From the NCBI RefSeq assembly GCF_003334315.1, contig NZ_QOWR01000059.1: a stretch of DNA of 28,938 nt; one strand, 5' to 3'. Source of the DNA: Escherichia coli. Its GTDB lineage: Bacteria > Pseudomonadota > Gammaproteobacteria > Enterobacterales > Enterobacteriaceae. Shown one piece after another: positions 11,807 to 27,191 of this stretch. Under the pieces are notes generated by a model. That model was not told the DNA's origin. It made no database searches and was given only the letters and a program-made list of their open reading frames with translations. A program made the translations under genes and the position numbers. Position 1 is the stretch's first letter. The number at the start of each line of letters is the position of its first letter.

Positions 11807-12043
11807 AACAACTCCTTAAAAATTGCACCCATGGCAATTGCACGAGCAGTGTTAATGTGGCGATTACGGTATCGATGACAACGGGTAAATAAGGTGATGA
11901 ATATTACACAGGGATTATTAACAAAAGAATTCAAATAACCGCCATGCTATTACGTGTTATTTTTTAATAAGCGTGGTTGTTTTAAAAACCAGGTTAAAAG
12001 AGAGCGGATTATCAAATAAATTCTAACTATATTTTTTTGCCTG

Positions 12044-22788: not shown

Positions 22789-24570
22789 TTATTCATAGTG
22801 CATGAAGCAGGTTTCAGTCGGTGCGTCCGCTGCGTTATCGGCGATATCTTCAAATTCCATGACGTTATCCAGTTCGCTGCCCATCGAAATATTGGTCACA
22901 CGCTCGAGAATAACTTCCACGACTACCGGTACCCGATATTGCGCCATTAAGGCTTTCGCCTGTTCAAAGGCTGGCGCAATATCTTCCGGTTTGAAGACGC
23001 GAATAGCTTTACAACCTAAACCTTCCGCTACTTTTACGTGGTCAACACCGTAGCCATTCACTTCACTGGAGTTGATATTCTCGAAAGCGAGTTGCACGCA
23101 GTAGTCCATGTCAAAAGCGCGTTGTGACTGACGAATCAGCCCCAGATAAGCGTTGTTGACCAGCACATGGATGTACGGAATGTTGAACTGCGCGCCAACA
23201 GCTAACTCTTCAATCAGGAACTGGAAGTCAAAGTCGCCAGAAATCGCCACCACATTGCGTTTCGGATCAGCGGCACAAACCCCTAGCGCAGCCGGAATCG
23301 TCCAGCCTAACGGACCAGCCTGACCACAGTTGATCCAGTGGCGGTCTTTAAAGACATGCAGCATTTGTGCCGCAGCGATTTGTGACAGACCAATGGTGGT
23401 GACATAACAAACATCGCGACCAAAGGCTTTGTTCATCTCTTCATACACGCGCTGCGGTTTCACCGGCACGTTGTCGAAGTGGGTTTTGCGCAGCAAAGTG
23501 CGTTTACGCTGCTGGCAGTCGGCGACCCATTCTTTACGACACGGCAGACGACCCGCTTTTTGCATCTCCTGCGCCACTTCAACCAGCAGTGTCAGCGCCG
23601 CTTTAGCATCAGAGACAATACCGAGATCCGGACACAGCACGCGACCAATTTGCGTCGGCTCAATATCAATATGAACGATTTTGCGCCCTTCGGTGTATTT
23701 CTCTACCGAGCCGGTATGACGGTTAGCAAAACGGTTACCGATACCAAACACCATGTCAGACGCCAGCAGCGTTGCGTTACCGTAACGATGCGCGGTTTGC
23801 AGACCCACCATCCCGGCCATCAGTTCATGATCGTCCGGGATACAGCCCCAGCCCATTAGCGTTGGGATCACCGGAACGCTGGTCAGTTCAGCAAACTGTT
23901 GTAACAGTGCAGCTGCGTCAGCATTAATTACCCCGCCCCCGGCAACAATCACCGGACGTTCGGCCTGGATTAACATTTCTACAGCTTTTTCGATCTGCAT
24001 ACGGCTGGCAGCAGGTTTGTAGACCGGCAGCGGTTCGTACATGTCAGGATCAAACTCGATTTCCGCAACCTGAACGTCGAACGGTAAATCCACCAGTACC
24101 GGACCCGGACGACCAGAACGCATCAGGTGAAATGCCTGTTGCAGCACGCGAGGCACCAGCGCCGCTTCACGAACTGTAACCGCCATTTTGCTGACCGGTT
24201 TAGCAATTGCTTCAATATCTACGGCCTGAAAATCTTCTTTATGCAGACGGGCGCGCGGTGCCTGGCCGGTAATGCACAGAATAGGAATGGAATCAGCAGA
24301 AGCGGAATAGAGCGCGGTGATCATGTCCGTGCCCGCAGGACCGGAAGTCCCCAGACATACGCCGATATTCCCTGCCGTTGCGCGGGTATAACCTTCCGCC
24401 ATGTGCGAAGCACCTTCCACATGACGCGCCAGAATGTGACGAATACCGCCGTGCTTACGCATCGCTGAGTAGAACGGATTGATTGCAGCTCCCGGAACAC
24501 CGAAGGCGGTAGTGATACCTTCTTTCTCCAGCACATACATTGCCGCGTCAACGGCTCTCATTTTTGCCAT
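22789..24570 (-). CDS. gcl: Glyoxylate carboligase (tartronate-semialdehyde synthase, ThDP-dependent)
   Basis: Start at ATG 24568..24570 ([34 protein letters not shown]...), 593 aa; the ORF-track start at 24660 is 30 codons upstream in the promoter. Confidence 0.95.
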
Positions 24571-24590
24571 TTTATTCCTACCTCTATTTA

Positions 24591-24607
24591 TTGGAAAATT
24601 TTTCCAA
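24591..24607. promoter_or_regulatory. AllR operator in the gcl promoter
   Basis: Palindrome TTGGAAAATTTTTCCAA about 20 nt upstream of the gcl start; matches the AllR box as I recall it. Confidence 0.7.
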
Positions 24608-24620
24608 CTTTCAAATTTTG

Positions 24621-24647
24621 TCAAAAAAACCCGCTCCGCAGAGCGGG
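24621..24647 (-). terminator. Rho-independent terminator of allR
   Basis: On minus strand: CCCGCTC-TGCG-GAGCGGG followed by TTTTTTT, about 12 nt after the allR stop. Confidence 0.75.
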
Positions 24648-24659
24648 ATGCGACAGACA

Positions 24660-25475
24660 TTATGGATGTGCTTTCAGTCCCAACGCCGTGCTGATATCGC
24701 GGGCGGTGTCTCTGACCAGCTCACCCTGACTGACAAAACGATCTTCTGTCAGTCTTGATGAAGGCCCGGAGATGGAGATAGCGGCAACAACACTACCGAC
24801 ATCATCGTAAATTGCTGAAGCTATGCAATTCAGACCTACAACATGCTCTTCTTTATCTACGGTATAGCCCAGTTCACGCGCTTGTTCCAGGTCCTTCAGC
24901 AAGGTGGGCATATCCACAAGCGTAGTTGGCGTAAACTGCTGCAAACCGGTTTGCAGAATGATGCTCATCAACTCCTCTTCCGCCAGCGGATAAAGCAGCG
25001 CTTTGCCCGCACCGGAAGCATGCAGTGGCAGACGACTGCCCAGTGGCGCACACATCCTGACCATCGATTTACACTCTAACTGACCAATTAATACCGCTTC
25101 ATTGCCGTTACGGATCGCGACATTGACCGTTTCGCCGGAAAGTAACATCAGGCGGCGCATAAACGGCCCGGCGACGGAGAGGACATCGCGGTTATGGATG
25201 TACGCCGCACCGACGTTAAAGACACCTAATCCTATATGCCACCAGCCTAATTGACTGTCCTGATAGACAAAATCCGCTGCCTGTAAAACCTTCAGCAAGC
25301 GAAAGGTCGTGGAGAGCGGCAAATCCAGATTGAGAGAAATATCGCTAACCGACGAACTTCCCCCACTTTTTTCCAAATATTGCAGAATCGCAATTCCCCG
25401 CTCTAACGCCTGTGCGCCCTTCTGTGCCACAGGCTCCGCCTGTCCTGGCCTGCCGCGCCGTCTAACTTCCGTCAT
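24660..25475 (-). CDS. allR: IclR-family repressor of allantoin/glyoxylate genes
   Basis: 271-aa [67 protein letters not shown]... (IclR HTH plus effector domain). Confidence 0.95.
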
Positions 25476-25552
25476 ACCTACGTTAACTCCGACCTACAAG
25501 TGAGCATAAACAATGAACAATTAGTTTATCTTATGCAAGTCGGTTGCAGGCG

Positions 25553-26035
25553 TCACGCAAAACAGAGTTCCTGTTCAGGAATACTTTCAACATCACAGTT
25601 GTCACTGCCGCCGCGATCGATGGTCAGAAAATCGGTGACGCGCTGCCAGGCGAAAAGTGGGTGATGCCAGACGTTACGATGGTAATTCACTCCCTGTTCG
25701 CCGTTGGTGATAAACGCCCGCAGCGTTGACAGGTCTGGTTTGTCGTCACCTAACGCCACGACCACCACAAACACCTCACCTTTCATCGGGATAAAGGCCT
25801 GAGTACCCAGCGGATGACGTTCGAGTTCGTGAATGGTCAGCGGCAGATTCGCCGGTTGCGCGCGGTTAATGCTGATAAGCGTACGGTCTTGCTCAAGAAT
25901 CTCAACCAGCGCCAAATCGTGGTAACGCTCCACCAGGCCATTGTTAATATGGAAAAAATCCCGTTGCTGCGTTTCGATTACGTCGCCATAAGCACTAAAG
26001 GCTTCCTGACTTAACGGTAATACCTGAAGTTTCAT
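25553..26035 (-). CDS. allA: Ureidoglycolate lyase
   Basis: 160-aa [45 protein letters not shown]... Confidence 0.93.
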
Positions 26036-26140
26036 CTTTTTGTCCTTGTAACATAATTCCGTTCAACCACCGCCGACCGGTCAGCTTGGTTTCAATAACA
26101 GGCAATCTAAAACCTTAAGAGAACAACATCAATACAAAAG

Positions 26141-26157
26141 TTGGAATATTTTTCCAA
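26141..26157. promoter_or_regulatory. AllR operator in the allA/allS divergent intergenic region
   Basis: TTGGAATATTTTTCCAA, one mismatch from the gcl-promoter palindrome, located between divergent allA and allS. Confidence 0.65.
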
Positions 26158-26264
26158 AACTAGATTTAGTCCACAAATTGAACAGGGTTATCATGTAAAA
26201 ATACTGATAAATCAGAGGATAAGAAAATCACGCAACTTGCGGATTTAAAAGGGGATACCTGAAG

Positions 26265-27191
26265 ATGTTCGATCCAGAAACCTTGCGGACTTTCATTGCG
26301 GTTGCTGAAACAGGAAGTTTTTCAAAAGCGGCAGAACGATTATGTAAAACCACGGCGACGATCAGTTATCGCATTAAACTTCTGGAAGAGAATACCGGAG
26401 TAGCGCTGTTTTTCCGTACGACTCGCAGCGTGACGTTGACAGCGGCTGGCGAGCATCTACTTTCCCAGGCCAGAGACTGGCTGAGCTGGCTGGAAAGTAT
26501 GCCAAGCGAGCTGCAACAGGTGAATGATGGCGTGGAACGCCAGGTGAATATTGTCATCAACAACCTGCTCTACAACCCCCAGGCCGTCGCCCAGTTGCTG
26601 GCGTGGCTGAATGAGCGTTACCCCTTTACCCAGTTTCACATCTCCCGACAAATCTATATGGGCGTCTGGGACTCGCTATTGTACGAAGGTTTTTCGCTGG
26701 CTATCGGCGTCACGGGAACTGAGGCGCTGGCAAATACCTTTAGTCTTGATCCCTTAGGATCGGTGCAATGGCGCTTTGTCATGGCGGCGGATCATCCGCT
26801 GGCGAACGTTGAAGAGCCGCTAACAGAAGCGCAGTTGCGGCGCTTTCCGGCGGTCAATATTGAAGACAGCGCCCGCACCTTAACCAAACGCGTCGCCTGG
26901 CGATTGCCAGGGCAAAAAGAGATTATTGTTCCCGATATGGAAACGAAAATCGCCGCCCATCTGGCGGGCGTTGGCATTGGTTTTTTGCCAAAATCGCTTT
27001 GCCAGTCAATGATCGATAATCAACAACTGGTCAGCCGGGTAATCCCAACGATGCGCCCTCCTTCGCCATTGAGTCTGGCATGGCGCAAATTTGGCAGCGG
27101 CAAAGCGGTAGAAGATATTGTGACCTTGTTTACCCAGCGCAGGCCGGAAATCAGCGGATTTTTAGAAATTTTCGGCAACCCACGCAGTTAA
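26265..27191 (+). CDS. allS: LysR-family activator of allD operon
   Basis: 308-aa [68 protein letters not shown]... (LysR HTH). Confidence 0.93.

Follow-up and report, generated by a model that had tools for sequence, protein, structure and literature searches.

The allantoin cluster of Escherichia coli analyzed here raises the question of whether two near-identical palindromes, one in front of gcl and the other between allA and allS, are the operators of the repressor AllR, and whether the regulatory circuit centered on them is intact in a cluster whose structural genes carry nonsense codons. Both points had been put forward in a first-pass annotation made from the nucleotide sequence. The DNA in question (hereinafter the window, i.e., the whole stretch of 28,938 bases that was analyzed) is a piece of the E. 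coli chromosome in the opposite orientation to K-12. Comparisons with NCBIfam equivalog models confirmed the identity of AllR, AllS, AllA, and Gcl, whose genes surround the two palindromes as follows:

22789..24570, minus strand: gcl, glyoxylate carboligase (TIGR01504, 1283 bits), the first gene of the gcl operon
24660..25475, minus strand: allR, IclR-family repressor of 271 aa, intact (NF007548 AllR equivalog, 619 bits against a cut-off of 406)
25553..26035, minus strand: allA, ureidoglycolate lyase (NCBIfam equivalog), running leftward from the divergent region
26265..27191, plus strand: allS, LysR-type activator of allD/allF, intact (NF007501, 644 bits against a cut-off of 372)

AllR is 100% identical to its K-12 counterpart and free of internal stops, with PDB 1TF1, the AllR effector domain, as its structure match; AllS is likewise 100% identical to K-12 AllS, and the mnmH gene lies on the plus strand like allS. 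The operon headed by gcl has been described as gcl-hyi-glxR-allW-allB-ybbY-glxK (PMC10163214, PMC12535856). An 89-nt spacer separates the allR stop (24660) from the gcl ATG (24570), and a divergent spacer of 229 nt lies between the ATGs of allA (26035) and allS (26265). A 623-aa 'gcl' frame in the program-made list of open reading frames, which runs through the first palindrome, was set aside as an artefact of an upstream in-frame ATG, the true start being at 24570.

Each of these two spacers holds one palindrome, and both 17-mers are read exactly at the positions given in the first-pass annotation:

24591-24607, strand not assigned (.): putative AllR operator at the gcl promoter, TTGGAAAATTTTTCCAA; the corresponding 19-mer is 24590-24608
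26141-26157, strand not assigned (.): putative AllR operator in the allA/allS divergent control region, TTGGAATATTTTTCCAA; the corresponding 19-mer is 26140-26158

The gcl site, which ends 20 nt upstream of the ATG, is a perfect 8-1-8 palindrome (TTGGAAAA-T-TTTTCCAA), and the allA/allS site, at a distance of 1,550 bp, shows a single mismatch between its arms (TTGGAATA-T-TTTTCCAA). The two differ from each other at 1 of 17 positions, and both are instances of the inverted repeat TTGGAA-N5(A/T)-TTCCAA. They are the only loci in the 28.9-kb window with three or fewer mismatches to the 17-mer (0.36 expected from shuffles), and exact 12/12 half-site matches likewise occur at these two places only.

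Both control regions are 100% identical to those of E. coli K-12 MG1655, and, as AllR regulation was elucidated in K-12, this identity supports their assignment to AllR. Suvorova and Gelfand (2021; PMC8222616 Table 1, after Rintoul 2002) give the AllR motif as KTTGGAAWAWTWTTCCAAC. It matches 24590-24608 with a single mismatch and the minus strand of 26140-26158 with none, and recovers no third locus in the window (0.15 hits expected by chance). Two further published elements could be placed on the same DNA:

26131..26167, minus strand: the 37-nt 'AllR recognition site' AAATCTAGTTTTGGAAAAATATTCCAACTTTTGTATT, quoted in PMC13300388 from Rintoul et al. 2002 (its reference 10); one exact match in the window, centered on the allA/allS site
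24578..24658, minus strand: the 81-bp gclP fragment, mapped by the 3′ ends of the PMC13300388 primers; contains the gcl site

The second of these served as the AllR-repressed promoter in an MG1655 Pgcl-lux biosensor (PMC13300388). One summary of the literature (PMC12535856) names the gcl operon promoter and the control region shared by allS and allA as the places where AllR binds, glyoxylate as the inducer, and allantoin as a co-repressor; AllR targets and effectors are also summarized elsewhere (PMC10163214, PMC5934670), and ChIP-seq and BLI/binding-energy measurements exist for AllR in K-12 (PMC12059191, BoltzNet). Thus, the claim that the sites fit the known repression of gcl and allS/allA by AllR is supported by the K-12 identity, the consensus match, the 37-nt match, and the reporter fragment. 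We consider it very probable that both palindromes are the known AllR operators, such that bound AllR would repress the gcl operon, allA, and allS; for binding and effector response at both sites we rely on the literature on the identical K-12 DNA. In comparison with the K-12 operators (Rintoul et al., 2002; Hasegawa et al., 2008; Walker et al., 2006), the control-region DNA of the window is identical, and the flanking genes, gene order, AllR, and AllS are all alike, with no difference in any operator or regulator. The identification is correct but ordinary, in that both AllR operators were already known.

We then compared 21 enterobacterial loci with AllR orthologues that are 66-100% identical, ranging from Escherichia, Klebsiella, Citrobacter, Raoultella, Buttiauxella, Izhakiella, and Atlantibacter to Providencia. 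When no more than a single half-site mismatch was tolerated, TTGGAA-N5-TTCCAA was found at the allS-allA and gcl positions only (21 allR loci, up to ~7.8 kb each). All 19 loci that span both positions have both occupied, and two truncated Escherichia loci each carry a site at the one position that they reach. Counted by position, the gcl site is present in 20/20 allR loci reaching gcl (half-sites 0.996 conserved), and the allS/allA site in 20/20 loci reaching that spacer (half-sites 0.986 conserved). Majority-base conservation at the center is 0.90 for the allS/allA operator and 0.82 for the gcl operator, with 0.63 in the ±15-nt flanks, and the center is 95-100% A/T across the loci. The distance from the gcl operator to the gcl ATG varies from 12 to 27 nt and is mostly 18-21 nt.

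The motif scan suggested as a check in the first-pass annotation was run with a symmetrised weight matrix built from 40 sites in 20 non-Escherichia loci. Over the whole window, the gcl site scored 37.9 bits and the allA/allS site 34.7 bits; the next distinct position reached 2.4 bits, and the best of 200 local shuffles 15.4 bits. The two palindromes thus stand far above the rest, and the scan placed no site elsewhere: upstream of allR, in the allD/allF spacer, and across the remainder of the window nothing rose above background. The result at allD/allF agrees with a published account in which AllS activates allD and allF and there is no AllR site at allF (PMC12535856). Since the AllR box has barely changed at either position between Escherichia and Providencia, these sites offer clean data on which to train a weight matrix.

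Sampled variant alleles within E. coli differ mostly outside the 17-mers. One strain, E. coli ES6, has a gcl operator with the half-site TCGGAA (ATCGGAAAATTTTTCCAAC) together with a change in the gcl Shine-Dalgarno region, and this operator allele may be partly derepressed. A 61-mer megablast census recovered the gcl site in 2,537/5,426 genomes; this low count is probably methodological, the DNA being A/T-rich and carrying extra SNPs, and we set it aside as a conservation figure. Among the database entries, CACSKA010000001.1, titled 'Chryseobacterium sp. 18061', carries an enterobacterial allS-allA-allR-gcl locus almost identical to that of Citrobacter sp. 18056, and this assembly is probably mislabelled or contaminated.

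The closest rival for these sites is the paralogous regulator IclR, which also responds to glyoxylate and which might bind the palindromes mainly or in addition to AllR. Its motif, TGGAAATNATTTCCA (PMC8222616 Table 1), has the TGGAA-N5-TTCCA half-sites and spacing common to both palindromes; moreover, AllR itself scores 248 bits with the IclR equivalog model and matches IclR effector-domain structures. That score, however, lies below the model's cut-off of 380 bits, and, while the half-sites and spacing fit an IclR box, neither the center nor the location does: the central 5 nt differ from the IclR center ATNAT at 2-4 positions, and the sites stand at gcl and allS/allA rather than at aceB/iclR, accompanying allR in the 21 loci at these two positions. 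Further, the outer T and A of TTGGAA/TTCCAA are nearly invariant, though the IclR consensus does not require them, and the literature assigns the sites to AllR. Hence, we regard binding by IclR as very unlikely. The IclR boxes at aceBAK/iclR are nevertheless a close parallel, sharing with the AllR sites the regulator family, the TGGAA-N5-TTCCA repeat with its A/T-rich center, and the glyoxylate effector, but belonging to another regulator and regulon (the glyoxylate bypass); the AllR sites, for their part, have additional bases kept at the outer ends (TTGGAA/TTCCAA, flanked by G/C) and a center of their own. Like AllR, KdgR (another IclR-family regulator, with A/T-rich palindromes) and BhcR (glyoxylate/glycolate) have palindromic operators at the promoters of adjacent catabolic genes; they differ from it in half-site sequences, organisms, and pathways, and AllR falls below their equivalog cut-offs, with BhcR as its second-best family match (269 bits).

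Two other readings dispense with a DNA-binding protein altogether. The inverted repeats could act as RNA hairpins in the gcl mRNA leader or in the divergent transcripts, and they are indeed predicted to fold (-6.5, -5.4, and -4.4 kcal/mol; z of about -2.5 for two of these). Such hairpins are weak against the adjacent true terminator (-14.8 kcal/mol); both arms are conserved in sequence without compensatory changes across 20 genera-level loci, with only the loop-equivalent center varying, and this combination of arm conservation without covariation and weak folding argues for recognition by a protein rather than RNA pairing. Additionally, the allA/allS site is upstream of both predicted promoters and so is probably not transcribed. 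A role as RNA is extremely unlikely on these grounds. As for chance, the intergenic DNA is A/T-rich and 1 of 100 shuffles reached four relaxed matches; yet exact half-sites occur at two places only in the window and at the orthologous places in 21 diverged genomes whose flanks are 63% conserved, and no shuffle exceeded 15.4 bits, against 35-38 bits for the two sites. The notion that these are functionless palindromes in A/T-rich DNA is effectively refuted, and we give it only a negligible probability.

Taking the palindromes as AllR operators, we asked how each is placed relative to the promoters that it would control. On the gcl side, the following elements were recognized:

24623..24647, minus strand: intrinsic terminator of allR/AllZ, with the hairpin at 24647..24630 followed by a U-tract to 24623 (terminator scan)
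24619..24624, minus strand: predicted gcl -35 box TTGACA (from the sequence, a TTGnnn at a fixed distance in other genera, and the 81-bp reporter)
24601..24596, minus strand: predicted gcl -10 box AAATTT, a poor one, at a 17-nt spacer from TTGACA and within the operator

The terminator hairpin (-14.8 kcal/mol, z -3.3) is conserved across genera, and the spacer reads, in order, allR hairpin, U-tract, TTGACA, 11 nt, operator, Shine-Dalgarno, and ATG. The 81-bp fragment works as a promoter and the hairpin fills its upstream third, which leaves TTGACA as the only plausible -35 box. The gcl start would then lie near 24589, within the operator or just at its border, and bound AllR would occlude the -10/+1 region and exclude RNA polymerase. 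The overlap of the gcl operator with the -10/start region is thus a predicted geometry, and the short operator-ATG distance across genera fits such an occlusion. The sole result of a consensus promoter scan, TTTCCA-17-TAAAAT, was rejected, as its -10 box overlaps the gcl start codon and falls outside the functional 81-bp fragment. A RutR box has been reported upstream of the gcl operon (PMC10163214); searching the window with its consensus gave only two three-mismatch matches, in allC and allE, which is at chance level. The same spacer also bears on a small RNA: positions 24623-24857 of the minus strand correspond to the K-12 sRNA AllZ (b4831; Bar et al., 2021), which derives from the allR 3′ end, and the K-12 AllZ 3′ end at 533863 maps to window position 24623. 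The likely gcl -35 box, TTGACA, shares bases with the U-tract of AllZ/allR, so that terminator and promoter-operator are packed into ~60 nt.

In the divergent spacer, two candidate promoters flank the second palindrome:

26104..26132, minus strand: predicted allA promoter, TTGATG (26132..26127)-17-TAGATT (26109..26104), with hexamers conserved in the 21-sequence alignment
26165..26194, plus strand: predicted allS promoter, TTTAGT (26165-26170)-18-TATCAT (26189-26194), from conserved blocks

On the allS side, the alignment shows conservation of a AGATTTAG.CCACA block and a TAnnAT-like hexamer. The predicted -35 boxes begin 8 nt (allA) and 7 nt (allS) from the operator edge, and both promoters fall below the threshold of the consensus scan. 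The allS/allA operator would accordingly sit between two back-to-back -35 boxes. The 37-nt recognition region would overlap the -35/upstream regions of both, such that a single bound AllR could block the two promoters at once. If the predicted starts, near 26097 for allA and 26201 for allS, are right, the operator is centered near -52 from both; a center at -52 involves no classical overlap with the core promoter, and the mechanism of repression at allS/allA is therefore less certain than that at gcl. Downstream of the predicted allS -10 box is a further strongly conserved allS-side block (26189-26215), which reads ATGCAAAAATACTTATAAATCAG in most genera; it could be an autoregulatory site of AllS, a site for another factor, or the real allS promoter.

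Based on these placements, a conditional scheme of control can be laid out. The inverted repeat is of the kind that would be read by the two helix-turn-helix domains of an AllR dimer. AllR at 24591-24607 would shut off gcl-hyi-glxR-allW-allB-ybbY-glxK, and AllR at 26141-26157 the divergent allA and allS; through the repression of allS, the AllS-dependent allD and allF operons would indirectly be kept off. Glyoxylate is expected to release AllR from the DNA, whereupon derepressed AllS would activate allD and allF, and allantoin is reported to strengthen repression by AllR. In solution, AllR is a tetramer. A tetramer, with one strong dimer-type palindrome in each control region, makes bridging possible: one AllR tetramer might span the 1,550 bp between the operators, with allA-allR looped out, or else the allS/allA operator, exactly midway between the two predicted divergent starts (~-52 from each), might act by occluding the -35/upstream regions rather than the core promoters. 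We hold this proposal to be unlikely. If looping did take place, repression of gcl, allA, and allS would be coupled into one cooperative switch. The helical phase of the two operators is uninformative at this distance, as their spacing ranges over 1541-1636 bp across the loci with no conserved phase.

We next turned to the claim that the regulatory architecture is intact even though structural genes carry nonsense codons. With a near-identical strain as reference (10 SNPs in 26.9 kb, no indels), two such codons were borne out, all the remaining genes of the cluster being open:

11572: fdrA/allF Q79*, TAG
19762: allW W364*, TGA

Both distinguish the window from K-12, where neither the gcl operon carries allW W364* nor the AllS-dependent operon fdrA/allF Q79*. 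Among 5,426 complete E. coli genomes, the fdrA stop SNP was seen in none of the 5,372 that match its 61-mer and the allW stop SNP in none of the 1,920 that match its own. The closest relatives, found via the exact AllD sequence, have neither nonsense codon and encode full-length genes. As allW lies within the AllR-controlled gcl operon, polarity of W364* on allB-ybbY-glxK is possible.

In every comparison with close relatives, four changes were private to the window (9525, 11572, 11905, and 19762), and all four are G:C>A:T transitions; besides the two nonsense codons, they are ylbE A202V and an intergenic change. Such a set may carry the signature of a mutational process (mutagenesis or deamination), or may stem from sequencing error or chance. 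The intergenic change, C>T at 11905, also distinguishes the window from K-12 and is located at -99 relative to the allF ATG, within the control region between the divergent allD and allF. It falls inside the -142/-83 fragment that was used as an ArcA-binding EMSA probe (PMC12535856) and turns TGTGTG into TGTGTA on the allF strand, beside a TGTTAA ArcA-like repeat. Because of this change, intactness is shown for the AllR part of the architecture only, i.e., for allR, allS, and the operators, all of which are unchanged.

To judge from its DNA, then, this cluster is losing pathway genes but has kept the AllR part of its circuit whole. Intact regulators and operators go together with private stops in allW, which encodes the allantoin transporter, and allF/fdrA, which encodes a subunit of the oxamate transcarbamylase, and this suggests that the anaerobic use of allantoin, and not the glyoxylate-responsive circuit, was lost recently and in this lineage specifically. 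The sites themselves are textbook-level elements of the E. coli allantoin/glyoxylate regulon and are in use in biosensors, so that the value of locating them here is mainly one of annotation. IS1 has inserted independently into allC, ybbY, and allW in the close relatives FACU 2024, cM2a, and CP138419, among which there is also a deletion, linked to IS1, that runs from allW to glxR; the cluster, these observations suggest, decays recurrently in the clade of the source strain. In the window itself, positions 1-~204 match an IS1 end, at 99.5-100% to IS1 copies in related genomes, which places an IS1 upstream of folD in the source genome.
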